Positions 2,930 through 60,720 of a DNA stretch of 64,000 nucleotides are shown here, in pieces. The notes beneath the pieces were generated by a model. The model did not search any database. It was given only the letters and a program-made list of their open reading frames with translations, and was not told the origin of the DNA. The DNA is taken from the NCBI GenBank assembly GCA_010093815.1, contig ML996572.1, one strand, 5' to 3'. This DNA comes from Pseudovirgaria hyperparasitica. Taxonomy: Eukaryota. Both the position numbers and the translations under genes were made by a program. Numbering within the stretch: position 1 is the first letter of the stretch; the number at the start of each line of letters is the position of its first letter.

Positions 2930-3394
2930 TGTGGTATACCCGGTTTTATAATCCTGGGATCTAGGGGAGCTGGAAAATTTGCTTTGCTTAACACTCACAC
3001 ACATGAAATTTCGGACTGCGTGTTAGGCTAATGAAATGAGATATGCCTATCAATTTATAAATTCATGCTTGAGAATATCTCGTCTTTATAGAATGCTGAT
3101 GCGTGACTGACGCGAGACGTGATTGGAATTCATTATAGAGACCCAAAATCTGATACATGGACGTGACATCCATCGTAGAGACCCTACATCTATGACAAAG
3201 ACTTGATGTCGATCTACCATATACAATTTCCTCGCCACCAAGAAAGTAATCAACAACATGGATGAAGGAGATCCATGATAATCAAGAACTAAACAAGTCC
3301 AGACAAGAAAGAACCAGACTGCAGAAAGCTGGAAGGCCCAAAAACCAAAACACCCCCAAAATCCGAAATGAGGCAAGAAAAAAAAACACAAAAA

Positions 3395-3488
3395 CTCATG
3401 CCCGAGGATTTGAACCAGGGTCTTACTGAGAAACCAGACGAACTGAGTTTTTTCAATCCACGTTGTGGCACCACTAAACCATGGCCCC
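3395..3488 (-). pseudogene. tRNA-like / Pol III A-box plus B-box element (degenerate tRNA or SINE head)
   Basis: Minus strand reads GGGGCCATGGTTTAGTGGT (A-box-like) ... CCTGGTTCAAATCC (B-box), then T-runs. Acceptor and anticodon stems do not close. Confidence 0.55.
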
Positions 3489-4135
3489 GAAGTGTGGGAA
3501 CTGACAGTTAGTCGTTTCGAATTGTTTATAAAGGGTCCACATTCTGGTCTTCTCTAATTCTTGGGAAAGAGATTATACACTCGATCTATGACGCACTCAC
3601 TCAGGGCTGCTCCTTTGGGATCAACCTTCGAGGAAAAACTCCCTTAAAACTGTTTTATAGATACTCGAATACGTTCTTTCGACGACAAAATCTAGATGTA
3701 CGAGTTGGCCCTTAGATAAATTTATACATACTATACAAAGAAAATCAAGTAGATTTTGTGATAGTATGTACATCTCAGAAGCCCTTCAGATGATACTATA
3801 GTCCTATAATATTATAATAAGCCAGTCTAGATATCGCTACTCGTAATCCATCACGCAGAGACACAGACGCAAGACATGTCCAAACCTCAACACCAACACA
3901 CACCCTATACCAGCAGTATTAGGTCCAAGCGCCCAACGTTGTTGGTTCAACGACTTACAAACTTTCAAAGTTGCCGTTCTGAGATGCGAAAGAGCCAATC
4001 AGCGCACAGCCGAGCACACGAGGGAAACGAAAGGTCCAAGCAACACGCAAGACGCAAAAAAGTGGGAAATTTCGAAGCTTTGACCCGGTATGGCTGCTGC
4101 CTAACGACGAACCCCTTACGTCACTCAACCCGGCC

Positions 4136-4401
4136 CAATTGACGGACGAAAAAGGGGGCGTCCGGCGATAAAACGTCAGAGCAATCGCCGAGCAAGGAAT
4201 GAATGGCAAGGCGAAGAGTCTCTATTGACGGGAAACCAGCCAGCCAATGGGAACCTGCTCTACAGGTCTGCGCAAAGTGGAGACAGGGAGTCATATGGGC
4301 GATGTGTGTTCTCGCACGGACGGTATCGTGGGGTCTTGGCGTGGTGGAAGTGAATCTTCACAACACTGTTCAATAGCGAGTGTTTTCGCCAACCTATTGA
4401 C
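4136..4401. promoter_or_regulatory. Cluster of CTATTGA / ATTGACGG motifs upstream of the orphan gene
   Basis: CTATTGAC at 4222 and 4394, CTATTGAA on the minus strand at 4369-4376, CAATTGACGG at 4136. ATTGACGG occurs three times. Confidence 0.45.
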
Positions 4402-4824
4402 GGCCCTATCTCTAGTTGTTTTGAGAGTAATTGATGAGGCGGCAAGCGAGATTGGGAGGATGGCGTGTGATGGAGTAAAAATTTTCTCCAGGGGAGGGGA
4501 GGGGAGGAGGGGGACTGTTGGAGGAGAGTATTTATTGCGGCTTTGCTTGCTCGTTTTTTGCTTCTTCTTTCTTTCTTCCTTTCTCTATATCTTCATACTT
4601 TACATCTCTACCACTGTTGAAGATCGTTCTATCCTCTCTCATCACGTTGGTTGAAAATCGTCCACATTTACATTCATCACGCTCATCACATCGTCATTCC
4701 TCATATCGCCATTCGAAATTTCGACACTCAACACATTGCCATCTCGCCACTCATCATATCTCTTTCTTCTTTCTCTTTCGACTCCTCAACTCATCATCAC
4801 ATATTTCCTCATCATCTGCCAACA

Positions 4825-7395
4825 ATGCCTCTCAATTTGGCCCCTCTCTGGTCTTTGATCGGTGTTCTCACCGCCATCGACCTTTTCACCAAGATCATCT
4901 ACCCGGAGGCTCGGGCCGCAATCTACGAAGTCTGGACGGCCATCAGCGGTCGAAGTTCCACGTGGGCGCCTGAGGGCGCATTCGTGTGGAGCATGGTCGG
5001 CCACATCCACAGGCCTCTTCCGTTGGTGGCGGCGCCGCCAAAACTGGAAAACTCACTTCCCCTGGGAGATGCCCAGGAAAACGCAACGAACCACTACAAC
5101 ATCTACAGTGGTTTCAGTCCAAGGACAGAAGCTCACCTCTTCCAGCTTCTTCTGACAATCGCCGTTTTCCTGGGCATGCTCGTGTGGCTCGCGTTACGGA
5201 ATTCGAAGTCTTCCGCTGTGCTGGAGCAGCGAGATCCTTTCGCGGTCTCGGTGCAACACATACTTGAACAGCACAACGTGGACTTCGGTACGTTCGTGGA
5301 GCGCACCCTCCGCATGCCAATAACCACGGATGAGATCGCCGCTGCCACCATCGAGCGGCGATTCAACGAGGTCGGAGGCCTGGGTGAGTTCATGCAGAAG
5401 AGCACGGCGGCAACGGCAACCCAGGGCGCGACAATCAGCGGTCTCGCCCAGCGTCTTGGGGCCGTCGAGGCCGCCGTCGGCAAGGCTGTGGCGGCACACA
5501 GCACCCTGGAAAGGGATTTCCAGGTACACGTCACCGACTTCAACGCCCTGGCTGGCCAGGTCGCAGCAAACTCTTCTTCCGGAAAGTCCACCGCGGAGAA
5601 GGCGTCCGATCAAGAGAAGCGGCTCTTCTCGCAGATCACGAAGCTCAAGGTGCTGACCGAGAGGTTCAACACAGTGCAGTCCGACGTCAGCAAGCTCGAC
5701 GTCTCCCTGTCTCAACAGGGATCTCAATCGTTGCCCACCCAGGGGCAACTCACTGCACTGGCCCATCTGCCCCAGCAGATGGAAGACCTCGAGGCTCGCC
5801 TTCGCGAGCAGATCGCCGGGAGTGTGCTCGACCGGGTCGCGGCTGTAGAAGCCAAGGTGGAGCAGGGAGAAGCTCATTGGCAAGACCAAGCCGCTGGTCT
5901 TGCCGAATTCACAGGGAAGGCGGAGGAGTGGTTCCGTGGGGTGGAGGACAAGATCAAGGAGGCGGCTGAGGACGCCTCCGAGGTCAAGAGGGGCATGGAG
6001 GCCTTCGCGCGCCTCGACGAAGAAGTCAATTCTTCGGCAAAGGCCTTTGTGGAGCTTACCACAGAGGTCGGCAAGATGGGTGCGCGTCTGGACGAGGACT
6101 TCAAGTCTTCATCGGCCGCCATCACGAAGCTCGGCAACAACGTCGGGAACATGGGGAACACACTCCGAAAGGAGTGTGTCAAGCGACATGAGAAGGACTA
6201 TGCCGCCATTAGCTCCTTGGGTAAGGATCTTGACAAAGAGGCTCTCCGCACAAGGGCCTCCTTCACCGAGTTCGAGGCTCGCGTGGGCCGATTTGAGGAA
6301 GCTCAGAAGAGCAAAGGCTCTTCTTCTTCCTTGTCGGTGGCCACCACTCGTCCTTCGGAGGCCATCTCGTCGGAGCCTCGTGCTCCAAAACCTTCCTCCG
6401 CCCATCCCATCCCCTCGCCCCCAGTCGTCTCCTCCGCTGGACCCTCGCGCCCATCCGCGCCGACAGGGGTTTCAGAGGTGCCATCGAGGCCCTCTGTCGC
6501 CCCTCGCCCATCCACCGAGACGTCCGAACCCAAGACGTCGCGCAAGGAGGGCGCGAGGTTCCAAACCGTAGCTGGCATAGAGGCGCCAGTTCCCACGAAG
6601 CCCAAGGGCCACGGCAACCGTGGGATGAGAAAGGTGTCAGAGGCATCATCATCAACTGCACCTCCGGCCAAGCAAGAGCCGAAGACCACCACCACCACCA
6701 CCACCGCCTCTACCACCACTCCTCCCACTGTCGCCGCACCTGTCGCCGCCCCTGTCGCCGCCCCTGTCGCCGCCGTCGCCGCCCCTGTCGCCCCTGTCGC
6801 CCCTGTCGCCGTTGCCGCCACCGCCGCCACCGCCGTCCGAAAGCCATCTCAGGCTGAGAAACCGGCCTCTGCTCCCGTCGCATCGTCATCGACGGGCACC
6901 GCAGGCAAGGCCTCAAAGGCAATCAGAGGCGGGATGACCCAGAGCAAGTACGCTGCCCCCGAACAGGGCAGCGCGGTCGTCCCCAAGAAGACGCCTGCGC
7001 CCACTCAAAGCCGGGCGTCTTCGAGCCTCCAGGCCAAGGCAGTGGCCTTCACTCCAGCAGCAGCACCATCACAGGTCGAGAAGCCAGCTCCCGCCAGCTC
7101 CCAGGACGTCCGCAGCGCGCCAGTCGCCAAGCCGCAGCCCTCGTCCTCGTCGTCAAGCAGCAAGGCCGCACAAGCCCCCCAGGACAGCGGTGCAAGCAAG
7201 GAGAGTCCCGCGGGCGAGTCGTCTGAGAAGACACAAGCCCAGAAAGACGAAGAAGCGGGCCTCCTGCCGCTATGGGATGGACCCAAGACTGCGGCGCAAG
7301 AGTACGAGGAGAAGCTGCAAGCTGCTCTGAACAAACACGCGAAACTCTTCGACAACTTGCCCAAGGGCATGCACCACAGCAAGTATGCACGCTGA
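4825..7395 (+). CDS. Orphan intronless membrane protein: two N-terminal hydrophobic segments, long coiled-coil, Ser/Pro/Ala/Thr-rich disordered tail
   Basis: Long GC-rich ORF. First ATG at 4825 (MPLNLAPLWSLIGVLTAI), second hydrophobic segment LFQLLLTIAVFLGMLVWLAL, heptad-like region, then low-complexity tail. Confidence 0.8.
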   Translation: MPLNLAPLWSLIGVLTAIDLFTKIIYPEARAAIYEVWTAISGRSSTWAPEGAFVWSMVGHIHRPLPLVAAPPKLENSLPLGDAQENATNHYNIYSGFSPRTEAHLFQLLLTIAVFLGMLVWLALRNSKSSAVLEQRDPFAVSVQHILEQHNVDFGTFVERTLRMPITTDEIAAATIERRFNEVGGLGEFMQKSTAATATQGATISGLAQRLGAVEAAVGKAVAAHSTLERDFQVHVTDFNALAGQVAANSSSGKSTAEKASDQEKRLFSQITKLKVLTERFNTVQSDVSKLDVSLSQQGSQSLPTQGQLTALAHLPQQMEDLEARLREQIAGSVLDRVAAVEAKVEQGEAHWQDQAAGLAEFTGKAEEWFRGVEDKIKEAAEDASEVKRGMEAFARLDEEVNSSAKAFVELTTEVGKMGARLDEDFKSSSAAITKLGNNVGNMGNTLRKECVKRHEKDYAAISSLGKDLDKEALRTRASFTEFEARVGRFEEAQKSKGSSSSLSVATTRPSEAISSEPRAPKPSSAHPIPSPPVVSSAGPSRPSAPTGVSEVPSRPSVAPRPSTETSEPKTSRKEGARFQTVAGIEAPVPTKPKGHGNRGMRKVSEASSSTAPPAKQEPKTTTTTTTASTTTPPTVAAPVAAPVAAPVAAVAAPVAPVAPVAVAATAATAVRKPSQAEKPASAPVASSSTGTAGKASKAIRGGMTQSKYAAPEQGSAVVPKKTPAPTQSRASSSLQAKAVAFTPAAAPSQVEKPAPASSQDVRSAPVAKPQPSSSSSSSKAAQAPQDSGASKESPAGESSEKTQAQKDEEAGLLPLWDGPKTAAQEYEEKLQAALNKHAKLFDNLPKGMHHSKYAR
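6685..6837 (+). repeat. Coding microsatellites: (ACC)n and GCCCCTGTC-based units encoding poly-Thr and (A)APV repeats
   Basis: Visible tandem units; protein TTTTTTTASTTTPPTVAAPVAAPVAAPVAAVAAPVAPVAPV. Confidence 0.9.
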
Positions 7396-7584
7396 AGAAC
7401 ACCTCTTCCTCCTGGGAGGGGGACCTCACGCTGGCCTGGTTTCGAAAGGCTGCTGCAGGGACTTGTCTTCAGTTTTGCTTCTTGTTGTGCTGTATCTTGC
7501 TTCACGCGGTAGCGCTCGGCTTCGCTCCTTTCTCACACTCATCCTTTTCGACCTCGACTCATCACCTGGACTGACTTGGGACAA

Positions 7585-8611
7585 GGCTCACGTTCGAGTG
7601 TCTGGCACACTCGATCAAGCCCTACGTCCTATCTTCTCCCTGACACTCCCTGCATGGCTCACGTTTGAGTGCCTCGCAAACACTCATTCAAGCCCCTCCC
7701 TCCTGTCTTCACCTGTACTCTGGGTATGGCTCATGTTCAGTGTCTGGCAAGCACTCGTTCAAGCCTTCACCCTCTCAAGGCTCAAGTTCGAGTGTCTGGC
7801 AAGCACTTGTTCAAGCCCCTCCNNNNNNNNNNNNNNNNNNNNNNNNNNNNNNNNNNNNNNNNNNNNNNNNNNNNNNNNNNNNNNNNNNNNNNNNNNNNNN
7901 NNNNNNNNNNNNNNNNNNNNNNNNNNNNNNNNNNNNNNNNNNNNNNNNNNNNNNNNNNNNNNNNNNNNNNNNNNNNNNNNNNNNNNNNNNNNNNNNNNNN
8001 NNNNNNNNNNNNNNNNNNNNNNNNNNNNNNNNNNNNNNNNNNNNNNNNNNNNNNNNNNNNNNNNNNNNNNNNNNNNNNNNNNNNNNNNNNNNNNNNNNNN
8101 NNNNNNNNNNNNNNNNNNNNNNNNNNNNNNNNNNNNNNNNNNNNNNNNNNNNNNNNNNNNNNNNNNNNNNNNNNNNNNNNNNNNNNNNNNNNNNNNNNNN
8201 NNNNNNNNNNNNNNNNNNNNNNNNNNNNNNNNNNNNNNNNNNNNNNNNNNNNNNNNNNNNNNNNNNNNNNNNNNNNNNNCCTCACCCTCTCAAGGCTCAA
8301 GTTCAGTGTCTGGCAAACACTCGTTCAAGCCCAATCCAAGGCTCAGGTTCAGTGTCTGGCAAGCACTTGTTCAAGCCCCTCCGTCCTCATTTCGGTATGG
8401 CTCAAGTTCAGTGTCCGGCAAGCACTCGTTCAAGCCTATCCGTCCTGTCCTCACTCCCAAGGCTCAAGTTCAGTGTCTGGCAAGCACTAGTTCAAGCCGC
8501 ACCCTCTCAAGGCTCAAGTTCAGTGTCTGGCAAGCACTTGTTCAAGCCTCCCTCTCCTTTCTCACTCTCAAGGCTCACGTTCAAGTGTCTGGCAAAACAC
8601 TCGTTCAAGCC
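7585..8611. repeat. Array of ~38-bp palindromic direct repeats with variable pyrimidine-rich spacers
   Basis: Consensus GGCTCAAGTTCAGTGTCTGGCAAGCACTYGTTCAAGCC. Copies start at 7585, 7656, 7728, 7779, 8294, 8340, 8399, 8461, 8511 and 8572. Spacers are 8-34 nt. Confidence 0.95.
7823..8279. other. Assembly gap (457 N) inside the repeat array
   Basis: Run of N flanked by repeat units on both sides. Confidence 0.99.
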
Positions 8612-9537
8612 CTCTCCGTTCTGATCATATTTCTCCACACCTTCATCTTTCGCAAATCCCCAGAACAGAACGAGAGTGAGAAACGACAACTCGTACTTCG
8701 ATACGAGGAGAGTACAGAGACATACAGGACAAGGAGGACGAGGACCATGACCAGGACCAGGACCAGTGAGAGGATGGTACGGTATCTTTTGGGGGAAAAT
8801 GACTTTGGGGGGTGGGCGGAACACGTCTATCTTTTCTCTCTCCTCCCTCTCAGAGAAAGATGGGCGGGTGTTCAATCCGGGTTTTTGATTTTTGTTTTGA
8901 TGGATGGGAAAAACTGTTGTTGTTGAATGAGTGTTGCTCTGGCTTTTCAGAGAAGAATGGAATTGGGATGATTTGTTGGTTTCTCTCTTGTTTGTTTTGT
9001 TGTTGCAAAGTTCCTTCGGCTTGGGCGGGAACAATGTGGTCTTGAAGTTGCACAAGTTGAATTTTTTTTCCTTTGTTATCACGAGTTCTTGGTTTGACTC
9101 AATGAATGCATCTTCATCTCGTTCATGATGTCTCTTCTCATCGTCATCTTTTGCCGTAATGTGTCTTTCATCATGATGTGACCATGTGTGTGGTATTGCA
9201 ACTAGATGCTGTTGTATTTGTGTTGCATCGCGAGTTGGAACTGAATTGCAATTGAGTATGTGGGCAATTTCCGATTGGTTGCTATACGACCGTGTCTATG
9301 CTACGCCGTGGATGCAGAATTATGACAACAATTAACCCTCTAAGTATGATATGATGACATTCCCAATAAATCACGACGACGGTGCAGCGTCCTTGATATG
9401 CGTTGGTTGCGACGCGGCCTGCTCGCCTGCAACGCCACAGATTACTCATTCTCGTCATACCGAAACATCGGAAGATATCGCCATACAGTATAGCATATAT
9501 TGCAGATAGGGACTTGGGCGGACCGTCTTCGCAGTGC

Positions 9538-12500
9538 TCAAATCTCAAATTTCTTCCATCCCTCCACGAGCCCATCACCGGCTTTTGTCACAATCGCCCA
9601 GTTCGGTAGGAAGCGCCATATTTCCTCCAGTGCGGGGATTGCGCCTTGGGCGTTTGCATCGGCGTATAGACAGACAACGTGGCCTGAAAGTCCAGTGTTT
9701 TTGGACTGCGACGATTGTTTTACCAGGCCGTCATACGTCATTACTGCATGCTCGCCATTACCTGTCATGTCTGTCGTGCTGGACACAGTATCCCATGCCA
9801 CGCTCACGTTCCACTGAGCGTGGAAAGTTCGACTCCACAATCTGACTTCGCGTGCGCCATTCTCGCCCACGGGAGAAAAGCGCGAGTCAGATGCTGCGTT
9901 GGCGATATGCAGTGATTTGACGGGCGTGTCGAAGTAAATGCGGCAGTTCTTCGTGTCAAGAGCTGAGATGTAAAAGGTAGCAGTATTCTTGCCGCCTGTG
10001 GTTTCGATGTCGAAGTTGAACCATTTGGACTCATAGCTCCGGCGACTGTGGATGGCTGAGATATTGGATGGGAGTGTGACCGGGTGTGCAGGTAGACCGG
10101 GCCAAATACAACTCGTCAGACCGTTGCGCGAGCTGGTGTATGCATCAGACGATGTGCAGTTTATGTCATGTCCGCTCGCACTGGGGAGGTTAGAGATTGC
10201 TGCTTCGACGAAGGGTTGTGCGCCGGTCAGTGAAACTGATGTAGCGCCGGTGTCGCAGTCAACGCGCTGGAGGAAGAAAAGTTTGAGGCGATTGTTTGGC
10301 GAGAACGGAAACGCAACGAGATTATATGCTAACGTGCCAATCAGGATCAACAGGAGGAATGTAGGGAAGTGGTAATGGAAGCGGTGTAGGAAGGGTGTGA
10401 TTGGGATCAGTAGGAGGACGGTGAGGATGGCAATGAAGAGGTAGACGGCTAGAATGGAGCTGCCGTCTGCTCCAGTCTGGTGCAGACCCGCGGTGATGGT
10501 CAAGGCTATCTGTCCAATAAGGACGATATTTATAGGCCCGAGGAGGAGAAATTGAAGGAGCCAGACAGAGCTTGGGAGTTTGCAGCTCCAAGGCTGCTCT
10601 TCACCATAGGCTCCACGCATTTCAGCGGGCGGTCGATCGTCACTTGTGGTCTCTGAAACGTCCTGAGAAGCACGGCGAGAGCCATAACGTGCAAAGGATT
10701 GACGATCATTTTGTAGCAATGATGTCGTCTCAGTAGCGTCGTCGTCATGTTCTGTGGACCCATGATTGGATCTATGGTTGGTACCTGAGGTCGGAGGTCG
10801 ACTATCCGGGCCATTACCATCCATTAGTGCTACGTAGTCTGCCTTCTTTGGCAGAGCAAACATCTCGAGGAAGGACAGTAGCAGCGCGATAGAGACGCTT
10901 GCAAAGTATATGACGAGGAAGTAACCTCCTGCAAGATGGAAATTGTTCTCGCTGATAGTGGCAAGGACTAACAGCGCAAAGGATGCAATGTAGATCCATA
11001 GCAATGCGTATATGCGCTGCAATGCCGTGGGCCGCATCTCATCAGAGGCTCGAAGACCCATCCATGCGACGAAGAACCAGGCCGCAATCATGGAGGCCCA
11101 TACTGAGTACTCGCTGCTGTATGCGATCAGTGGGTTTACCTTGGCATATAGGTATGCAAGGGCTATGGTAGCTGCGGTAGCTATAGCAATCGTCATCGGA
11201 TATCGGAAAAAACCTCGAATTCCATTGAAAGAGATGAAGTGATCATCGTTCGAGGAGTGTACCCATCCGCGGCGAGCCCACAGATACATTTTGTCAGCCC
11301 GTGACAAGAAGATTGTGAGAACGATGAACATGATCGGTGTAACCACAAGAAGCGTGACAGACCAAGCAAAGAGGGTATGCAATTCAAAGACTGCAAGTAC
11401 TTGAGTGAAGAGATCGAAGTAGACAACCCTGCTTCCGTCGCCTGCTTTGACTTTTCCATCTTCTGGCTGCCCGCTAAAATGGTCGCTGGTATCTGAGACC
11501 ATTGCTTTCACAGTGCCGAGTGAGGCCGAAAGCATGTTCCAGACTGACTGCTTGGACGTCTCAATCGTTGAGTCCTGCATCGTATGATACTTTGCTCTTG
11601 GCTCGAAGAAGGCAACATCAAGGCCTCTGAGGCCGAGATCGCCATTGAACACGACATAATCAGTCTGACTGCGGATAGCGCCTTGTTCAAAACCGTCTGC
11701 CGTGACGACGGTACCAAAAGGGTTCTTGGCTTTCTTGTAGAATCTCGCAACTTCAGTATCTGTAGCACGGAACAGGATAGCCTTACCTCCCGCTCCGGCT
11801 CCTTCGAGGTTCAAAAATGTATGCGGCGTTTGCGAAACAGGATGCCGCATGAAAGCCCGTGCTCCATTGAGGTAGTCTTCCTCCCCGTTGTTTAGTAAGA
11901 GAACTAGGCATCTGGTTGGCTCGTTGCCTGGTGTAGTGAAATAAGAGAGTAGCTGGAGAATGGTGACAATCCCGACACCATCATCAGTGGCTCCAAATCC
12001 GGTTGAGACAGAGTCAAAATGAGCGTTCACGAGGACGCCTCCTTTAACTTTCTTAGCATCGCTTGAGGCATTGTCCTGATAACAGTGGCCTTCATCATCA
12101 GTGCCCTTGATCGACACTATGATGTTACTTCCTTCAAAGTAAACGCTCAAGCTATCTCTCGAAGAGGTAACGTTCGATCCAAGATCGTCAATCACTATGA
12201 CAGAGCTCAAATCGGTTCTCTTCGTAGAAGTGACACCATCGATCCTGTCTCTCTCGACAGCGAAGCTTGCCTTGTTGGTCGTGAGAATCTCAGAGATCCG
12301 ATCCAGGAGGAAAGTTCTTGCATCGTCGTTCGCTTTGCTGTTATATGGGTGATAGTATGAAGTCAAGTTTTGAAGGTCATTCCAGGCTGCTGTGAGATCG
12401 ACTCCTTCCGGGTACTTGGATGGAGTCGAAGGCAGTATATAGTGATTCACAATGAGGACAGCGAACAATCCAATGTATATGATCGAAGTGAAAAAGGTCA

Positions 12501-12543
12501 CCGGGACAGGCGTAAAAGAAAAGGGATTCCCAAAGCGAGCCAT
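9538..12543 (-). CDS. PFF1: Vacuolar membrane protease, peptidase M28 family
   Basis: 1001-aa ORF with VLVNAHFDSV, GATDDGVG, NNGEEDYLNGA, FLNLEGAGAGG, RSQTDY and YHT motifs, followed by multiple TM helices. Confidence 0.92.
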   Translation of the reverse strand: MARFGNPFSFTPVPVTFFTSIIYIGLFAVLIVNHYILPSTPSKYPEGVDLTAAWNDLQNLTSYYHPYNSKANDDARTFLLDRISEILTTNKASFAVERDRIDGVTSTKRTDLSSVIVIDDLGSNVTSSRDSLSVYFEGSNIIVSIKGTDDEGHCYQDNASSDAKKVKGGVLVNAHFDSVSTGFGATDDGVGIVTILQLLSYFTTPGNEPTRCLVLLLNNGEEDYLNGARAFMRHPVSQTPHTFLNLEGAGAGGKAILFRATDTEVARFYKKAKNPFGTVVTADGFEQGAIRSQTDYVVFNGDLGLRGLDVAFFEPRAKYHTMQDSTIETSKQSVWNMLSASLGTVKAMVSDTSDHFSGQPEDGKVKAGDGSRVVYFDLFTQVLAVFELHTLFAWSVTLLVVTPIMFIVLTIFLSRADKMYLWARRGWVHSSNDDHFISFNGIRGFFRYPMTIAIATAATIALAYLYAKVNPLIAYSSEYSVWASMIAAWFFVAWMGLRASDEMRPTALQRIYALLWIYIASFALLVLATISENNFHLAGGYFLVIYFASVSIALLLSFLEMFALPKKADYVALMDGNGPDSRPPTSGTNHRSNHGSTEHDDDATETTSLLQNDRQSFARYGSRRASQDVSETTSDDRPPAEMRGAYGEEQPWSCKLPSSVWLLQFLLLGPINIVLIGQIALTITAGLHQTGADGSSILAVYLFIAILTVLLLIPITPFLHRFHYHFPTFLLLILIGTLAYNLVAFPFSPNNRLKLFFLQRVDCDTGATSVSLTGAQPFVEAAISNLPSASGHDINCTSSDAYTSSRNGLTSCIWPGLPAHPVTLPSNISAIHSRRSYESKWFNFDIETTGGKNTATFYISALDTKNCRIYFDTPVKSLHIANAASDSRFSPVGENGAREVRLWSRTFHAQWNVSVAWDTVSSTTDMTGNGEHAVMTYDGLVKQSSQSKNTGLSGHVVCLYADANAQGAIPALEEIWRFLPNWAIVTKAGDGLVEGWKKFEI

Positions 12544-13612: not shown

Positions 13613-15637
13613 TCAAGATCCACCTAAGTCACCACTTGCTGCATCCTTGATAGTTTTGTAGGTGAAAAAAGTCGGAAGTTTGGATGGAGCATGCCGAAGA
13701 GAGCTCTTTTCAGGCTGAGAACGCGCCGAGTTGCAACGTTCGACCTTCTTCAGCTTACTCCGAGATCGCATCGGAAAAGTCATGATCGAGCTCCCATCTG
13801 GCTTTGTTGGTGACTGTGCTAGGACCCTGCGAAAGAAGGGCATCTTGATCGTCCGATTTATTGGGGTGTCCGAGCTCTCTGGAACTGGCAATGGAGTTTC
13901 CATCCATTCGTATCGATGGCCGACTACTGCAGGCAATGGGGGTGGTATTGATGCCGCGGGTTGCTCTCCACTCTGCGCACCTGATGGGAAAATTGTGATT
14001 GTTGAGGTGTTCGAGAACTTTCGTGCAAGCGTGCTGGGGTCGAAGAACATTTCCGATGGAACAACGCTCTTTGTCGTTGTCCTGTTCGACAAATAGGATT
14101 CTGCATGCACCAGAACAGGACGCATCTTGGGACCAGGATTTAACTTTAATGTAGCCTGATCTCTTATTTCCTCTTCGATCAGCTTCAAAATGTCCCACGT
14201 GGGAGATTCTTCTTCGTCTTCTTCTTCTTCTTCATCTTCTTCGCCAACTTCCGCATCCCCGTCTGCTGCTGGCTTCAACATTTCATGTCCTTGTTTCTCT
14301 GCTAGTGTGGTGGTACCATCGTACACCATCGGCTGGAGGTAAACCAGAGGTGAATCTGGCCGTTCTGGGGGTGACCTAGATGGCATCGGAGGCACTGGTG
14401 GTGGTGTTGATGACATTGGAGGCCGCATCATGTTTGGCCAGTTCATTTCCCCATATGTCGTAGGTCTAGAATAAATACTTGATGCGCGGAACGCCTTCTC
14501 AGTCCAAACACGACACAATTCTTCCTCTTCGGGCTCATTAATCTTCTCAGGTCTCACCGTCTCAACGCTGCGGCAGTCAGCGCTACTATCATCTTCAACC
14601 TCGTCTTCAAGATGCTCATTTTCCCCAATACTCTTTACCTCGTCTTCAAGATGCTCATTTTTCTCCATACTCTTCACGTCGTCTTCAAGATGCTCATTCT
14701 CCCCCATACTCTTAGTCTCGTCTTCGTCGCCACCAAAATCCGGCACCCCAAACAACCTCCCCTCAGGTACACCCCTGATCCTCACCTCCCCAAGTTCCAT
14801 TCCCTTCTCCATCCCACTCCACGCATCCTCACACCGTGCCGCATTCCACCGTACATCCACCTCCCTAAGCACAAAATCGAACCTCTCCCCCCAATAATCC
14901 CACTCCACACACTCGTTCCCTCTTCTAGGCCCCCACTCCCTCTGCATTCTCCTCATCCAAGCCCCACACTCCACAAAACTCTGCCTCGCAGCCCCATACT
15001 CTCCAAGCGCATACTCCACCGTCCCCAACAAGAATTGACACAGTGGATCCGCCCGATTGAGCAGCCATCCGCGCGCAAACGCTGTGCGCGCGCTGCCGTG
15101 CTCTCCTGTCCGCATGTACAGAAGCCCGATGTTGGCCCAGAGCTGCGCCCGCATCATGTAGTGGTCGCTGCCGTGGGCGCGTGTGAGTAGGGATAGGAAG
15201 GCTTGTCGCGCGCTTGGGATGGCTCCGTTGCGTGCGCGTGTGAGGGCGGAGGCCCAGCGTTGGGTGATTTCAGTACGGGTTAGTGGGGGGAGGGGGGTTG
15301 CTGGAAGGGGTTTGTCGTGTAGGTGTGTCACTGGAATGGGAGGGCAGAGATGGGGTGGTGGGCGTGGTGGACGAGGAGGTGGGATTGTTGAGCGCGGCGG
15401 GTGAGCATCTGCTTGTCGTGATAGGGGGGGTGGAGGAGGCGGTCTCCACGATAAGACAGGAAACGGTGTCTCCGTCGAAAGCTGTTTGAATGCGTCAAGC
15501 CGTCTCTGTTGGGTACTTAGTTGAGGAACGAGGGCTTCAGGCTCGATTCCAAACCCAAGGGACGAATTTATAAGAACAGGGTATGATATGACTGAGAGCT
15601 TCTCATCTTTGGGCTTTGACGAGCTGAAGAGGCCCAT
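13613..15637 (-). CDS. TPR protein resembling the NoxR/p67phox N-terminal domain, with Pro-rich and acidic extensions
   Basis: LWANIGLLYMRTGEH..A..F, FLLGTVEYALGEY..A...F, DYWGERFDFVL...DV.WN and IRGVPEGRLF parallel the NoxR TPR/activation region as recalled. Confidence 0.6.
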   Translation of the reverse strand: MGLFSSSKPKDEKLSVISYPVLINSSLGFGIEPEALVPQLSTQQRRLDAFKQLSTETPFPVLSWRPPPPPPLSRQADAHPPRSTIPPPRPPRPPPHLCPPIPVTHLHDKPLPATPLPPLTRTEITQRWASALTRARNGAIPSARQAFLSLLTRAHGSDHYMMRAQLWANIGLLYMRTGEHGSARTAFARGWLLNRADPLCQFLLGTVEYALGEYGAARQSFVECGAWMRRMQREWGPRRGNECVEWDYWGERFDFVLREVDVRWNAARCEDAWSGMEKGMELGEVRIRGVPEGRLFGVPDFGGDEDETKSMGENEHLEDDVKSMEKNEHLEDEVKSIGENEHLEDEVEDDSSADCRSVETVRPEKINEPEEEELCRVWTEKAFRASSIYSRPTTYGEMNWPNMMRPPMSSTPPPVPPMPSRSPPERPDSPLVYLQPMVYDGTTTLAEKQGHEMLKPAADGDAEVGEEDEEEEEDEEESPTWDILKLIEEEIRDQATLKLNPGPKMRPVLVHAESYLSNRTTTKSVVPSEMFFDPSTLARKFSNTSTITIFPSGAQSGEQPAASIPPPLPAVVGHRYEWMETPLPVPESSDTPINRTIKMPFFRRVLAQSPTKPDGSSIMTFPMRSRSKLKKVERCNSARSQPEKSSLRHAPSKLPTFFTYKTIKDAASGDLGGS
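14601..14724 (-). repeat. Three 39-bp in-frame tandem repeats (K-S-[MI]-x-x-N-E-H-L-E-D-[DE]-V)
   Basis: TCGTCTTCAAGATGCTCATT recurs at 14601, 14640 and 14679. Confidence 0.9.
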
Positions 15638-16266
15638 GTTGGCAACTTTCTTCCGCAGTTTGTGTGATGATGGAGGTGGTTAGGTATGTCATAGTGCCTA
15701 GACCTGGAGATATGATATGGCCTAGATGCGTTGTCATTGAAAGTGGCTGTGTGGAAGCCGTGGAATGGTGACTGCTTTCGTGAAGGATAGAATAGGTCAC
15801 GACGTGATATCACGACGTTTAAGTGCTGTTCGCAAATCATAGAAAGAATAGTCTGCTGCTCAGTGAGCTGTATGAAGCCGCATCAAGAAGACTTAAGGAG
15901 TCTTGTCTGCTGCTCAGCATGCGATGTGAAGCAACATCTTAGGGGCCTTGTACATTCTGATATGCGCGTGCTTGTCAGCTGCTCGACTTGATGACAGTGG
16001 GATGACAGAATGGCATGATTGGCGGTGAATGATATCGAATATGAAATGGCAAGCGTTCGTGTGAAAAGACTGAAGTAACCGAGATTTAAGCCTTTCACGA
16101 ATGAGTTCATGCTGATTTAGCGGTCAGACGTCTGTAGGTGTCGATGTAAGACGTAAATAAATTTTTGTTCTCTTCGGAGCGGCGACGTAGCGTGAGCGGT
16201 TCATCCGTTAGACTCTACACCATCGAATTTTTCTCGTCTCTGTTACTGGAATGCTTAAGTACAGTG

Positions 16267-30000: not shown

Positions 30001-30479
30001 AAACAGACGAAACCACTACTGAAACGATTCCAACTATAATTCCATGCCACCACATCAATAATAAGATATTTTAAACAGACAGAATTCTAGATATGTAGCA
30101 CTTCTACTGGTCTTGAAGTTATTAGATATCGCTGCTATCGTTGCTACCCTGTAGTCGCTTATGTTCGCGGAATAAATGTGTCCAAGAGGCTGTTACTACT
30201 TTAACCTCAATTGCATATACATTAAAAGCTCCAAAGTTAAGATAAGCCAAGCAACTTACCATCGCCTATGAAGCGGAGCATCAGTCCTTTCATCCATGAT
30301 AAGTATCATCACCACACTACTATATACGATTCCTATCTTGTTGCTTAGCATTTGACATACCACTCTATTATAACTACGTAAGCCATGAAGACGACATGTT
30401 CTCTTCGTAATAAATCAAGTTCATAGTAATACGTCATTTTCCTAGAACATAAGTCGCTTATCATTTTTCAGTTCCACGC

Positions 30480-31150
30480 ATGTGTTTATATACACCCATT
30501 AAATAGTTATTCTACCTCTCTACCTCTATATATAAGTCTATATAATAGAATATCTATATAGACTTATAGAGTAGAATAAGATAATTAATTCTACTCTATA
30601 TACCTTCTAAGCTCTATACCCTCTACTATACTCTATAGTAAGAGAGCTTATTTTCTTAGAGAAGAAAAAGAAGATAGACTTTCTAGAACCTAACATGTTC
30701 TTCGAATAGCTCTCTTCTAAGAGCTTTTAAGAATTTATTAAGCCTCTTCCCTATCTCTCGAGAGAAACTTTATAAGAATAAAATAAATCTATAGAAGAAT
30801 TATATATCTAATTACTTAGTTTATTTACTTTTGAAGTTCTTATATACTTAGACTAGATATAAGAGTAGTAAAGGCTCTAGATAGAAAGATAGGGTAGAGA
30901 ACGCGTTTTTATAAGTGCTTAATAACCTAGGTACTAGAAAAACGATGGATGTGTTAAAGGCTAAGCTCTATTTAAAATAAGTTAATGTTCGTTTAGAAGG
31001 AAGTAAGAATATAGTGGTACTTCTGTCTCAACGGACTAATAACACGACTGTTGAATACTTCGCCTTCTGTAAAATTCGCTCTCTCTCTCTCTTAACTCTT
31101 GAAACTTCAATCAATCAATTAATAAATCAATAAATGCTCTTATAACCTCA
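30480..31150. mobile_element. AT-rich, TpA-saturated relic, probably a RIP-destroyed repeat or transposon (family unidentified)
   Basis: Very high TA dinucleotide density and near absence of CA/TG (e.g. tatataagtctatataatagaatatctatatagacttatagag); no ORFs. Confidence 0.55.
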
Positions 31151-33299
31151 AGTTTGTTAGTTTAATAGTCTGGACTCCGCGGCTACGATCGATACAGTGA
31201 TACAGTCGTCTCGACTAGTATAATTCAGGTCACGGAGCTCGGAGTTTACGAATGACGGCCGGATGTTACTACGTCGACTGTCTGTTAGTGGTTGACGTGG
31301 ACTTGACACTGTGCATATGAGTGTAAGGTGGCGGGCTCCACGCACCAACGATCTACACCAAAAGGACCAAATCTTGAAGCTACTGCTTCAAGGGTAGAGC
31401 ACACTGCTTATATACGACTGCTACACACATGTAGAATCAACTGGCAGGCCACGTGCCTGACAATGAGTGCAAAACATTTCAGGCTTTTTTTACAACTACG
31501 CCGGAGTACACTAGTCTATAACCAGTTAGAGCATCCGAAGACTACTAACATAAGCTATACATTCCTTACCTAGTACGCCGACTCTAAAAATAAGTATGTC
31601 TGCCTTTACTAATTACTACTACTCCTCCTATAGAAGACCTCTCGGACGGCATTGTCCATGACCTTTGTAAGCACGCCCCAAAATCTACTTACTATCGATT
31701 TCTAGCCTGGCCCACCAATAATCGAAAAGGTATTTAAAGTATATAGTACTTTTCTAATGGGTATTTTGTATATTTTTCTAGCTAAGTCATGCTATTCGCG
31801 TTGCTAATTACCCTCCATGTTACTTATGGTCACAGAAAAATGCCGCTCAGCATGGATTGATAGCTTGGCAGACTCCACCTTAGCGTTCGCTTCTTCGGCC
31901 GCTCTATGCGCTCATTCTCTGCTGACTCGAAATCCCCGCAGGAGCACGTACTACAACTGACGGACTTCTACGGTCTTGTTAGTCGACATTGCTGGGACTA
32001 TACAGCTGCCATAGCTCGTAACCAAGTCAACGCCAAGACCTGGAGTGCATCCTCTTTCCTTAGCTACGTATATGGATGTGAGTAAGAGGCATCAACGTTG
32101 TTTGGTCTCTTCCGAGAATCACGCCATTCGTTGCCGCACCCTGAAGAGCCTCTAGAACTTCCGTTATACCACGTGTTGCATGTAGCACGCTCACGGCCTG
32201 CTCTATCCATCCATCGCGTGTCGTCTTCTGCGAACTCGAGCGCGCCGCGGTATTTTATCAGGTCGGCCCAGAATACCGGTATCTAAGAAGCCATTTACCA
32301 CGAATGTTGCGTCTTGGTAAAAACAGATCAGACCCCCTCACCTAACGATCCTAAAAGTGATGTCTTTCATTCTTGTGAGCACTCCCAAGGTACTCCATTG
32401 TATGCACTTTCGACATCGAACCCAACCAGTGACAAATTTTCTCTCACACTACGTTTCTTTCATCTTCACTATTGATAGTTGGAGAGCTTCTTTCCTTTCT
32501 TGTACCACTGATTTAGGTGCGGAGAAGCCGATTCCTTGTTTCCGCTCAGTAGAATGCTCTGCTACATTAACTCGTCTTGAGGTCTTCGTTTGCATGCTAG
32601 ATCGATATGTGTCCAGTACCCTGTTGTCGGGCCGTCCAGGATTCCTTAGAGGCAGTCTGATCAATGAAGGTCGATGGCAATTGCCCCAATTTGATCAATG
32701 CATTAGAGGGCGTGGACGAGTTTCTGAGTCGTGAGCCAGACTTATTTAAAGTTACACTCGCTATACAATTCATTCCCGGTGCTTTATTTTAATTTTCGCC
32801 ACGCGGCCGTGCGTCATGCAGCCGTGCATGTTTTATATCTTTACATAATTAAAATTAGAATCCTTTAAAAGAAATACCTTCAAGTTCGCTAAGCTAATTA
32901 CTAGAACAATTCACATAGAATCCCGTATATAATGGAAGTCCGGAGTATCGAGCACGTGCACCAAGGAAAACGTATTCTCCGTGTATATTATAGGTTATAA
33001 ATGTTGGGTATAGTGCAACAGGATATAAGACTAGAGTCGAGATAGCTACGCTCGTGCATACGTGCCAGGATTCTAGATGTTTGATAGATATACATGTATA
33101 TGGAAGTAGGCGAATCCTATGCGAAGGAGATCTGTAGAAGGTCCCAGTTGCCTAAACAGGACTAGTGATTAATGACATACTATTGCGTTCTTAATAAATA
33201 TCCTTTGATTTCTTCTTTCCATTCATGACTATTATCTATGTACCCTCGCTCTATGTTCGTCTAAAGCTGGTACCTCTACTTTAATCATTTTTTGTTATA

Positions 33300-40874: not shown

Positions 40875-43800
40875 TCACATCTCCTCTTTCACTGCAACAT
40901 CTGGCTCCGCAGCCTCGAAATCGCCTTGTTCCAGGATCGTTCCTGTGCAAATCTTTCCTATATGTGTGCGATCAATCGTCACACAGTTTCTACGAATGTT
41001 CGCCATGAGAACCTTGATGAAGGGCACTGGACTGCGTTGGAAGCCTTCAGAGCCTGGTTGCTGGACAACATATCCATCAGGTTCGATGATCATACCTTGT
41101 TCCGCCGGGTAGTAAGCCAAACAGAGGTATCGACATAACTCAGTATACTCTTTGTAGGAGCCGAGGTATAATTGGCCAGCGAACAGGTTCAATTGGACAA
41201 CTAACTTGCGTGGCAGATATTTTGGATCGAAGTCCGCCCCTAAGGTGAACAGATCCAGCTTATCGAGCGGGCGGTACTGAAGATTAGGTCGTGGTGCGTA
41301 CACATGAAGCGTGACTTTCTTATACTTCTTAACGATCTCAATCAGGTGTTGAGCCTCGAAAGGACTAATGATGATAACGAACTTGACGGTACCTCGATGC
41401 ACTTTGGTCAGTATCCACTGCACCGGGCGATAATACGAGTCACTGATAGCGTCCTTTGGCAACTCCTTGATCGTAGTGGCAAAGTCAACGGTCACAAGTA
41501 AGTCCTCAGTAAATTGAGCGACGTCAAAATCAGATGCGCTACAATCCCTGAGGCTGTCGTATGCTGGAATAAAGGCATCCGACCTCAGGTCTAGCTTTCC
41601 AGTTCTCGCCAAGACTTCTACTGCTCTGTGCAGTACATGGTCAGCTGGATCTACTGGCGCAGGATGCTCGACGTTCTGTTCTTCTTCTGCCTCGGGGTTA
41701 AGTTCCCTCTCTTGCTCCTCAGCCAGAGATGTAGCGTTGAATTTCACGCATGCGAACTTGCGGCAGCGGTCAACGATACTCTGGATGCTAGGCTTCGCGA
41801 CGTCAAATATTGTCTCAATGTTCTGTTTGGATTCAGGCTTAGGTCTGAAGCGATACTCGAGTGTCTTAGCCTCTGGCTCGAGGAACCGCTCTGCTTCGTT
41901 CTTTGACATTGAATAATAGCCTTGTTCGTGAGAACCTCGTTCAGCTTTCTGCCATATAGGCACCTGATCTTCGAAGCGTTTCCCCTGAGCGGCCCACAGA
42001 GGCATACTGTGCTGTAAGTCGAGGCACGACTCCCCAACTGCCCAAGACAAAACGTCCTTGACCTCAATGATAGGTTCCGTTGGTGGTTTCGTGTCCGCGA
42101 TAGCTTCAATACGACTTTTGCGTTCCAAGATTTTTGATTGTATTTCGGTTGGAACACAGAACACTACCGACTGCGACTTACCCAACCTCCGCATGCGCAT
42201 ACAGGCTTGGCACAATCGGTCCTTGGTGAGTCGAGCTCCCAGGGTGACGGCTGCGCGGTATGTTGCGGGAAGAGAGATGTCTATACCTCTCGCGTGTTGT
42301 TCTGAGAGAAAGACAAGACACAGATGGGTCTGCTTACTAAATGGAGAGGACTGCAACGCTTCAACATGACCGGTTCGATCGAGCACAGTAATCACATCGT
42401 TGTCGTCAACGAATATGACTGCTTTGGTATCCTCTTGGTGTACTATTTTCTCCAGCCATTGCGCTGCGACTTGGCGACTGCTGAGCTCTAGAATAAATGC
42501 CCCTACGTCGATGATCACGCGAGGCAGCGGATCCAGTTTGAGGACCAGATCGAGAAGTATATCTGCATCCGAAGCTAAGCTTGAAGAGGCTCTTGGGGGT
42601 ATAAGCTCCACAGAAGTTTCACTCTGCAGTAGATAGCTAAGCACCAGCGCATTTGTGTGACGCTGTGCAGCCAAGTCCAAATGCGTGACTGAGAGCGGGA
42701 GAAGATGGTGAGCATCGTTGGTACCACTGAAACCAGTGGTCGGATGTACTTTTTCTCGTCCGATGTCCCACCCGCTAGAGGACAGCTTCTGGGGAAACTC
42801 GCGTATTTCCGCGCAGAACACCATGTTCGAGAGATACCAGTCTACAACAACTTTGGAAAATCGGAGATGAGGAAATATTTGATCGGTGCAGATCACTCTG
42901 TCCTTCATGTTGATTCCTGCCAGTTGATGAAAATCCTGTGGGAGCTCTGGTGACGAACGTACCCACTCTCCAAACTCACCATCAGCTTGGTCACTACGAA
43001 GAAGCTTTCCAAAAGTGAGAAACATTTCTTCGTCACTGAGACCTCCATAGTAATAACTCAGAGAACTGAGGATAATGGTAACGTCTGGGTGCGAGAATTC
43101 TGATCGTTGGGACGGTGTATCCTTCGCGCGGTAAGGCACAGCCAGTCGACTTCTGGGTATTCGTGCTGGGTCGAGGCCGTAATTGACCTTCCAACGTTTT
43201 GCAAGCAGCGCGAATGATACGATGCCACCAGCGATGAGGCCTCGTAAAAGCAGAAGGTAATTCTTCGTTGATGGCGCGAAAAAAGCATGAATTTGGTCGG
43301 TCTCCACATGCGAGATCTCTTCTGATGTCAGATCAGGCTTCGAAATATATATCAAGACCGCCTGCCGGACATGTTCTGGCTGTCTTGAAATCGGGAACCC
43401 GGGTAGTCCAATAGAACAGATATGCTCCGTAATCAAGTTCAGTAGAAGTTCGGCTGCATCGGACCGAAGTATTCTTACCCGTGGAAAGCGCCCTGTGCGT
43501 CGTTCGTCTATCTCGATCGATTTTGGCAGGCTCTTCTGGACTTTAGGAGCAAAGCGCGGAATGAGTTCCAACAGCGACTGTATGACGTTCCATCTCTGCG
43601 GCGAGAACTCCACAGGACGTTGTAGGCCCATGGTGTATATCATCTCGAAACGGACCGAGAAATTCTCGTCGCTCTCATCTACGATATCTCTGGAATTTGA
43701 ATTCAGGAAACGCTGTATATTTAGTAGAATTTGCCCAACCTGATCCTGCCCAGAGATTGTACAGTCCAGTCCCATCAATTGAAAGGACAATATATGTTCA

Positions 43801-49800: not shown

Positions 49801-50404
49801 ATACAGCTGAGGAAACTCAGCTTTCTGACTGTAGACACGAGAGTCGATTGGAACCCGTCGGCGCGAAAGACTGTGAGTGGAACTGCAAAACTCGATGATG
49901 GAAAGGTACGCTGCAGTCGACCTTTTGCTTTGATACAAGCGGAGTTATCTGGCGACAGCTCGAAACAATCAAAAACTACATTTTCGCCAGCGTTTGAGAT
50001 GATAAGTGCAGCATTGTGTGGTCGGATCAATAGCGGAATCGTGCCACCTGGTAGCTTTAGTAAATGATTACTTGCGTATTGTAGCAGGTCTCACCTCTGG
50101 GATGCAATTTTTGCAGCATTGTAGTCAGAGTTTCAGCATCAATCGCGCCTTGCTTGTCCATACATGCCTTCATGTTCTTGAACATTGATTGAGCCGAATC
50201 GATTGGACTAAGTTGACTGGGATTTGCCGAATCGGAGGCTTCTTCAAGCGCGCTCTGCATAAGCCCGAGTAATTCACGATCATATTGCACATTGTGGTCG
50301 TCTTTCGACGGTAGCCGTTTGGGAAGGTAACAATGGTTGACAAAATAGTTCACCGCTTGAGCGGTGGGCTCATCGCTGACAGACGAGGTATCTGAATCGC
50401 TCAT
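40875..50404 (-). CDS. Very large (~3150 aa) DUF6606/DUF3638/DUF3645-type protein with P-loop/DExD-like NTPase motifs
   Basis: Exon 1 (VNHCYLPKRLP) spliced via 50094-50048 to LLIRPHNAALI. Motifs HAVTSGCLPDPLTHKTGTEEAL, QLMMGLGKSSVI, DIVDESDE, LAVPYRAKDTPSQRSEFSHPD, GFSGTND, QACMRMRRLG, EEQERE, LNLFAGQLY. Confidence 0.85.
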
Positions 50405-60273: not shown

Positions 60274-60720
60274 ATTCGCATAGTTCACGTAGGTGAGGCG
60301 CGTCGTGAGGATGCCGGTCGCGGGGTGCCTACGACTGCGATGGCGATGCCTGCTCCAGTAGTGATCTGGCAGAAGTCTTTTCAGCAGAGAAGAAGACCTC
60401 GAGGGTGCATACGAAGGGCGCACGTGTTGTGGTGAATTGACGATGCTGCGACGCCGTTGCAGGCACGACTTGGAGTCTTGAGGTTTCGCGTCTTGACGCC
60501 TGAGGCTCTACATCTTGGGGCCTGAGGAGCTACATATTCAGGCCTAAGGCATTCATGCATATCGCCATGAACTTACGCTAGCACAACTCAAGCTAGCGCG
60601 AACCGAGTAAATCCAAAGGTACCGAGTATTTCTGGTAAGTCTTCCCGAATGACATGAAAAATTATCTTCATTCCAACAATTCTTACGCCCACGCTGCCTC
60701 ATCTGCTCAGACTCTTCACC

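Follow-up and report, generated by a model that had tools for sequence, protein, structure and literature searches.

Genomic context of the array

The array described here occupies positions 7585-8611 of the 64-kb stretch of DNA that was analysed (hereafter the window), within the ~2.1 kb that separate the stop codons of two genes in convergent orientation. Upstream lies an ORF of 856 aa on the plus strand (4825-7395), expressed and unspliced, whose product has a low-complexity C-terminal half. No homologue of near length was found for this protein, its first 500 residues had no homologue among 1.84 billion representatives, and its sole Pfam match is below threshold (DUF7934, E 0.0033). With an orphan gene that contains internal repeats of 9-21 bp immediately upstream, the neighbourhood is both repeat-prone and young. 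The downstream gene (9538-12543, minus strand) encodes a PFF1-type vacuolar membrane M28 protease of 1001 aa, with the Peptidase_M28 and the PFF1 transmembrane and C-terminal domains. Between the array and this gene (8612-9537) there was no convincing candidate for a third gene.

The Pfam scan covered 31 long frames, namely 29 of the 58 stop-to-stop frames of at least 150 aa plus the two flanking ORFs. Other frames of the window carry Fungal_trans, Zn_clus, TRI12, Kri1 and BAR/PH/VASt domains. The presence of fungal-specific families (PFF1, Fungal_trans, Zn_clus), together with spliced GT..AG introns, indicates that the window is fungal. Cas, reverse transcriptase and transposase families were absent from the 31 frames scanned.

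Anatomy of the array

Ten copies of a unit of 37-40 bp (u1 to u10), all of them on the plus strand, make up the array. The left part (7585-7822) holds u1 (7585-7621), u2 (7656-7694), u3 (7728-7765) and u4 (7779-7817), separated by spacers of 34, 33 and 13 nt, and ends with the initial 5 nt of the following spacer. It is succeeded by an assembly gap of 457 N (7823-8279) and by the right part (8280-8611), with u5 (8294-8331), u6 (8340-8377), u7 (8399-8436), u8 (8461-8498), u9 (8511-8548) and u10 (8572-8611) and spacers of 8, 21, 24, 12 and 23 nt. The assembled array sequence amounts to 570 nt. The first-pass annotation of this DNA had described ten repeats of ~38 bp that start ~190 bp past the stop codon of the orphan gene and had listed the lengths of the spacers; the number and size of the units were confirmed, the eight lengths are exact for the eight complete spacers, and u1 begins 189 nt beyond the stop codon of this gene (TGA, 7393-7395). 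The nested palindrome that it had proposed, with outer GGCT/AGCC and inner AGTG/CACT arms, is present in every one of the ten units.

The units are well conserved, with 27 of the 40 alignment columns invariant and a mean column identity of 91%. A majority unit of 38 letters matched six of the ten at no more than three mismatches (none in 100 shuffles), and a profile HMM built from the units recovered all ten of them in the 64-kb window with E values from 5e-15 to 5e-11. The next match of the HMM had an E value of 1.5, so that no further copy, degenerate ones included, was found in the window. By manual count on the alignment, the core substitutions (13 or more) occupy about 11 of the 38 columns, in line with a uniform scatter. 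The variable core columns 7, 12/31 and 26 are positions predicted to be unpaired.

A degenerate pattern of the unit was also searched for in other collections. Metagenome contigs gave four loci, each with one isolated match that lacked both a tandem copy and an adjoining 5' arm, prokaryote contigs gave three single matches in bacterial MAGs, and viral contigs gave none. The seven matches are taken as chance; the collections searched are not fungal genomes. An exact-string literature search with three 17-mers of the unit returned no papers. The titles and opening lines of abstracts on fungal minisatellites, UTRs and hairpins held nothing pertinent, and the parts available to us of the literature on Vts1 in filamentous fungi held nothing about such arrays.

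The spacers as part of the repeat period

A way to understand the nature of the array is to compare its spacers among themselves. As had been claimed beforehand, the repeats are much better kept than the C/T-rich spacers (0.90 for the cores and 0.46 for the spacers, as matches over the longer length). The composition of the spacers is indeed biased (43% C, 32% T), but their similarity to each other (0.462) exceeds that of composition-matched shuffles (0.418 +/- 0.010, maximum 0.450, n=200; matches over the longer length). An alignment shows them to be indel variants of a single C/T-rich segment, the short spacers corresponding to the 3' portion of the long ones. Two types can be read from the alignment at the unit-proximal end. 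Type 1, ending in ...CTCAC(C/T)(C)TC(T)CAA, precedes u4, u5, u8, u9 and u10, and type 2, ending in ...G(G/C)TAT or GCAT, precedes u2, u3 and u7. Three spacers of 12-14 nt are near-identical, which points to recent copying of whole periods of 51 bp.

The periods of the array are 71, 72, 51, 46, 59, 62, 50 and 61 bp (range 46-72 bp), and TRF reports tandem arrays with periods of 46, 50, 62, 71 and 112. Since the spacers are homologous and differ mainly by indels, the array is a minisatellite with a variable period of 46-72 bp and not a repeat-spacer system; on sequence grounds, the entire period is to be read as one degenerate repeat with indels. The first-pass annotation had set the array apart from an ordinary fixed-period minisatellite, and its period is indeed irregular. 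A 17-mer that resembles the spacers lies in unique sequence to the left of the array (7525-7541, plus strand). It shares 94% identity with the last spacer (8554-8570) and may have survived from the single-copy progenitor of the period. We also considered a coding repeat. A frame of 513 codons is open across the array, yet the periods as a set are not multiples of 3, which places successive units in different frames, so the array is non-coding and this reading was discarded.

Assembly gap and copy number

Four public sequencing runs (X1 to X4), derived from two samples of the organism, contain the locus. X1 and X4 are from one sample, possibly the source of the assembly, and behave as DNA, unique sequence being covered evenly at a depth of ~250-330. 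In each of the four runs, contigs join ...8386 through GGT to 8280..., a unit-spacer junction that is missing from the assembled sequence and whose DNA depth is about twice the single-copy value (699 vs 312-328 in X1). In X3 there is also a contig that links 8547 to 8280. A junction without an assembled counterpart implies more units inside the 457-N gap, in agreement with the earlier suspicion that further copies were hidden there.

The DNA contig depth on the array is a few times that of single-copy sequence. Summed contig depth, which gives only the order of magnitude, puts array-like DNA genome-wide between ~1.5 kb (X4) and 2.7 kb (X1). These figures suggest tens of units in the whole genome, not hundreds, and no dispersed family. 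They also suggest that the true length of the gap probably exceeds 457 nt, or that there is a second small locus.

Transcription of the array

Runs X2 and X3 belong to a second study and a single sample. Their contigs carry joints, missing from X1 and X4, that skip introns of 47-97 nt (GT..AG at 1396/1451, 1774/1872, 2241/2289 and 18611/18672; CT..AC at 127/191 and 17957/18013). In addition, X2 has a poly(A) loose end at 3072, and the depth between genes varies several-hundred-fold in X2 and X3. Spliced contigs, the poly(A) end and the variation in depth from gene to gene, taken together, identify both as RNA assemblies.

An RNA contig of X2 is colinear over 4593-7757, running from the orphan gene into u3. 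From the PFF1 side, contigs of X2 and X3 extend from 12744/12746 to 8519, into units 9-10, and the gap-junction contig is present in both RNA runs (depth 40 in X2 and 25 in X3). Transcription had been fixed in advance as a test of the array, and with RNA contigs over both edges and over the gap unit the outcome is clear: the array is transcribed. Since the contigs of the DNA runs are interrupted at these positions as well (7756/7757 and 8519), the breaks are induced by the repeats and are not ends of the RNA.

The ratio of RNA mass to DNA mass (X1) of the array was 0.038 in X2 and 0.023 in X3. The corresponding values were 0.046 and 0.011-0.022 for the orphan gene, 0.35 and 0.13 for PFF1, and 0.0055 and 0.002 for the silent intergenic stretch 3336-4669. 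By this measure, which is crude as it relies on contig depth, the array stands ~7-10 times above the silent stretch and near the upstream gene, and the ratios weakly favour the orphan gene as the source of the transcript. The RNA contigs come from one RNA sample, are unstranded, give levels only crudely and have no transcript ends. The ratios give a weak hint that the array is the 3'UTR of the orphan gene, if the RNA is of plus sense. The 3'UTR location put forward by the first-pass annotation is to this extent plausible from the RNA contigs.

Secondary structure

The folding of the units as RNA was compared with that of shuffles on both strands. The z-scores from u1 to u10 were -2.72, -2.53, -1.29, -2.38, -0.86, -0.13, -1.05, -0.76, -0.51 and -1.48 on the plus strand and -3.85, -3.39, -1.48, -1.31, -2.84, -1.13, -1.85, -2.24, -1.99 and -3.36 on the minus strand, where G.U pairs lengthen the outer stem. 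Values of -2 or below were reached by three of the ten units on the plus strand and by five on the minus strand. The commonest unit type (u3 and u5-u9) folded on the plus strand no better than shuffles (z from -0.1 to -1.3), and one base of the stem is lost in the expanded central type. The best hairpins are those of the edge units u1, u2, u4 and u10. Good hairpins at the edges and poor ones in the type that was amplified are the opposite of what selection for structure would predict.

The 341-nt right half folds at -82.7 kcal/mol on the plus strand (z -2.64) and at -111.1 kcal/mol on the minus strand (z -3.05), but this long fold pairs neighbouring units together and does not form ten separate hairpins. 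The multi-hairpin RNA proposed in the first-pass annotation therefore finds little backing, with the commonest unit type at the level of shuffles on the plus strand and the long fold pairing neighbours. As single-stranded DNA, typical units folded no better than shuffles (z -0.26 and -0.27), which gives no support to slippage driven by ssDNA hairpins as the specific mechanism of expansion.

Eight of the ten stem pairs of the proposed nested structure never vary. The sole compensatory change is found in u2, where a double change from C-G to U-A keeps the inner stem; in u4 a change from G-C to G-U also keeps it, and u10 has an A.C mismatch in the stem. Covariation, the check suggested earlier for this structure, was not significant: this one compensatory change in one unit, the observed count, was reached by 175 of 500 shuffles, and the covariation score by 60 of 500. 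No Rfam family was detected in the array when the region 7300-9600 was searched on both strands (E <= 1). A chance match to SNORD104 (17.6 bits vs a gathering score of 40, E 0.56) lies outside the array, at 9348-9391.

Resemblance to Smaug/Vts1 recognition elements

The loop of the inner stem on the plus strand is worth a closer look. According to the portion of PMC4053848 available to us, the Smaug/Vts1 recognition element (SRE) is a loop of the form CNGGN0-4, 4-8 nt in length, on a non-specific stem, and its best variant is CUGG. The available portion of PMC3468468 describes Vts1p as working via Ccr4p-Pop2p-Not and a reporter that is destabilised by three SREs in its 3'UTR. In the array, the plus-strand loop is CNGG in nine of the ten units, the exception being u2, which has lost the motif (CUCG). 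The loop reads CUGGC in u1 and CUGGCAA(A) in u5 and u10.

We have re-implemented the idea of PMC4053848, as far as the part available describes it, as a score that is the Boltzmann-sampled probability that CNGG opens a hairpin loop of 4-8 nt. In context (+/-60 nt, 25 C), u1 scored 0.94, with a CUGGC pentaloop (7602-7606, plus strand) on an 8-bp stem that makes it a predicted SRE. In the other eight CNGG units, pairing between neighbours brings the score down to 0-0.02. The in-context totals were 0.95 for the array and 0.01 for its minus strand. When each unit was folded alone, the probability was 0.93 for u1, 0.85 for u5, 0.89 for u7 and 0.74 for u10, and between 0.13 and 0.17 for u3, u4, u6, u8 and u9, where an alternative C-G/U-A pairing closes a GGCA tetraloop; u2 lacks the motif. 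In the whole window, both strands considered, a probability of at least 0.5 was found at 15 of 1683 CNGG sites, i.e., ~0.12 per kb per strand. One of these sites (5552) lies in the orphan ORF and is the only one in the mRNA part 4593-7584, which is not exceptional. No SAM-domain family appeared among the Pfam families of the 31 frames scanned. Because the units share one ancestor, the CNGG match counts only once. Its chance is about 1/64 for each hairpin loop, and the match was spotted post hoc among many known loop motifs.

Proposed origin of the array and alternative explanations

These observations taken together indicate that the array is a real tandem repeat, and probably an ordinary one. 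We give a probability of roughly 60% to a locus-specific minisatellite of variable period, with no dedicated function, as a passive passenger of 3'UTR or read-through transcripts between the two convergent genes; how it arose, and that it lacks a function, are what we infer from the observations above. The array would have arisen when one period of ~60-70 bp, composed of a C/T-rich segment and a quasi-palindromic core of 37-40 bp, was duplicated in tandem, either by replication slippage or by unequal sister-chromatid exchange. The C/T-rich part, rich in short direct repeats (CCTC, CTCTC, TCAAG), would have lost and gained pieces, giving rise to the periods of 46-72 bp. The lasting similarity of the cores may reflect the youth of the array, or else exchange and conversion tracts that are anchored in the cores. 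Transcription would be passive, from the 3'UTR or the read-through of the flanking genes.

Some observations fit this neutral explanation less well. Units with different types of spacer (for example u3 and u7 compared with u5, u8 and u9) have cores that agree in all but 1-3 letters, despite strong divergence between the spacers. Homogeneous cores across differing C/T-rich parts would not be produced by the copying of whole periods alone, and either conversion anchored in the cores or selection on the cores is needed. Since neutral duplication of whole periods does not fully account for the homogeneity of the cores, the functional alternatives jointly keep a minority share of the probability. 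We also counted against neutrality the clear transcription, the changes in u2 and u4 that keep the stem, the unpaired state of the variable columns, the five of ten units with z of -2 or below on the minus strand and the CNGG loop in nine of ten units.

What might such a function be? In the 3'UTR of the orphan gene, which would be lineage-specific, the array could serve as a natural platform that presents many copies of Smaug/Vts1-type CNGG stem-loops, or of hairpins recognised by a different RNA-binding protein, although we regard this as unlikely. In its more specific version the units would be predicted SRE stem-loops, a 3'UTR cis-regulatory element of the orphan gene and putative target of a fungal Vts1 SAM-domain protein, which would recruit Ccr4-Pop2-Not so that deadenylation and decay scale with the number of units. 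The model draws on the in-context score of u1 (0.94), the scores of u5, u7 and u10 alone (0.74-0.89), the retention of CNGG in nine of ten units, the rarity of sites of at least 0.5 in the window, and the RNA contig of the plus-strand gene that enters the array, whose RNA:DNA ratio is similar to that of this gene. However, eight of the nine CNGG units score 0-0.02 in context, the five commonest ones reach only 0.13-0.17 alone, u2 has no motif, the RNA contigs over the array are unstranded, and the match is one event with a ~1/64 chance per loop, noticed post hoc; the SRE version is also rated as improbable. Alternatively, the array might be a source of dsRNA or small RNAs, in which overlapping convergent transcripts, or imperfect hairpins of ~100 nt formed by neighbouring units, would be converted by Dicer into siRNA- or milRNA-like RNAs. 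RNA contigs do enter the array from both flanking genes and the long folds join adjacent units (z -2.64 and -3.05 on the plus and minus strands), but the contigs are unstranded, z-scores so modest are expected of any quasi-palindromic tandem repeat, and the window has no other copy that could be a target. We consider this quite improbable.

Two further explanations were considered. In one, the array derives from a mobile element (MITE, foldback or Helitron-type tandem array), either as its remnant or as a satellite inside it, or else represents a locus of a dispersed satellite; this is improbable too, though a shade less so than the small-RNA source. Subterminal transposase-binding repeats have a conserved motif at variable spacing. 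By analogy the layout of the array would fit them, and the ~1.5-2.7 kb of array-like DNA, compared with 570 nt assembled and a nominal gap of 457 nt, would allow for a second locus. On the other hand, the ten units are co-oriented, flanking TIRs are missing (there is just a 15-nt inverted pair at 8555/8672), the 31 long frames contain no transposase or RT family, no further copy occurs in the 64 kb, and depth is elevated a few-fold, not hundreds-fold. Least probable of all, and by our estimate very unlikely, is a set of DNA-level sites in which the dyad core would bind a dimeric protein and the array would separate the convergent genes as a putative terminator, pause site or boundary. The dyad (GGCT...AGCC and AGTG...CACT) is invariant in the ten units and the array stands exactly between two converging transcription units, but a young array explains the invariance equally well, RNA contigs enter from both sides and do not stop ahead of it, there is no promoter nearby and no known motif was identified.

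If the favoured explanation, a functionless variable-period minisatellite, is right, the array carries mainly a caution, since tandem repeats made of a conserved core and an indel-prone filler look like repeat-spacer arrays and disrupt assembly from short reads. Should the platform of stem-loops be true instead, the number of units, easily altered in a minisatellite, would tune the decay or translation of the mRNA, a rapidly evolvable post-transcriptional "rheostat" derived from tandem duplication of a regulatory hairpin. A regulatory RNA hairpin would then have been amplified into a 3'UTR array of variable copy number, whose dosage effect on mRNA stability would be directly testable.

Comparison with known systems

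The array shares with CRISPR its near-identical and partly palindromic repeats of ~38 bp, with shorter differing stretches in between, and its direct repeats (91% identity) are within the range of about 23-55 bp. The likeness ends there. The spacers, of 8-34 nt, are C/T-rich, of low complexity and mutually related, no Cas family appeared in the 31 long frames, and the host is a eukaryote with spliced genes. The first-pass annotation had already concluded that this was not a true CRISPR, and related spacers of variable length, the absence of Cas and RT families from the 31 long frames scanned and a fungal host bear this out.

The conserved motif with irregular spacing is also seen in the subterminal repeats of transposons and in foldback elements. 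In the array, however, there is no inverted arrangement, TIR, TSD or transposase, and the copy number is low. Neither terminal inverted repeats, nor a target-site duplication, nor many dispersed copies, the hallmarks of transposons, MITEs and foldback elements, were found, and the only inverted pair near the array is that of 15 nt at 8555/8672. We therefore did not retain a foldback or transposable element as such, in view of the shared orientation of the ten units to the left and right of the gap and of the low copy number.

With the SREs of the nanos 3'UTR and of the 3xSRE reporters, as presented in the available parts of PMC4053848 and PMC3468468, the array has in common the CUGG loops, the presence of several copies past a stop codon and its transcription. 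It differs in that only one of ten units passes the score in context and four of ten when folded alone, and a natural array of ten or more SREs does not figure in those parts of the two papers.

The closest resemblance is to eukaryotic minisatellites, which are tandem repeats of 10-100 bp units that include variant copies and are unstable in length. The array has a tandem period between 10 and 100 bp on one strand (TRF 46, 50, 62 and 71), and like them it is head-to-tail, with a 46-72 bp unit that includes the filler, with variant units, non-coding and collapsed into a gap by short-read assembly. What sets it apart is an unusually irregular period, in which a kept core of 37-40 bp alternates with a C/T-rich segment ridden with indels.

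Genes and repeats around the array

Of the two convergent genes that flank the array, the one on its left is an 856-aa orphan ORF (4825-7395, + strand), expressed and unspliced, for which no homologue was found in the large protein collections searched. By eye, its product appears to be hydrophobic over an N-terminal segment, rich in Ala and Glu in the middle, and rich in Pro, Ala, Ser and Thr over the C-terminal half, within which tandem repeats of 9-21 bp are found (6685-6835). On the opposite side, contigs from X2 and X3 (the public runs with spliced contigs, hence RNA) continue unbroken from the coding region of the PFF1 protease gene to about 1 kb beyond its stop codon. This RNA (8519-9537) represents either an unusually long PFF1 3' UTR or an overlap of the two convergent transcripts.

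Further upstream, a spliced Zn2Cys6-type gene (600-2930, + strand) carries a CxxC...CxxC motif in its frames, with introns at 810/868, 1396/1451, 1774/1872 and 2241/2289 in the RNA contigs; a Pfam scan of these frames gave nothing at E <= 1e-5. The DNA contigs over this gene have about three times the single-copy depth, with ca. 7% differences and 3-nt indels. Near-identical paralogues are present elsewhere in the genome.

Elsewhere in the window, a giant open frame of 3071 aa (40878-50090, - strand) contains DUF6606, DUF3638 and DUF3645 domains. An AT-rich dip at 30001-32000 (GC 0.379 vs. about 0.5 in the rest of the window) has no long ORF and could represent a repeat that has degraded or sequence affected by RIP. 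A hexanucleotide repeat, CTGCGA/CTGGGA (59131-59277, 18-24 copies), lies in a 1002-aa frame (57502-60507, - strand) that the Pfam scan assigned to no family. A second minisatellite (14592-14725; period 39, 3.4 copies, 85% matches) sits within long open frames on both strands (13616-15679, -; 14483-15187, +) and, since its period equals 13 codons, may be a coding repeat.
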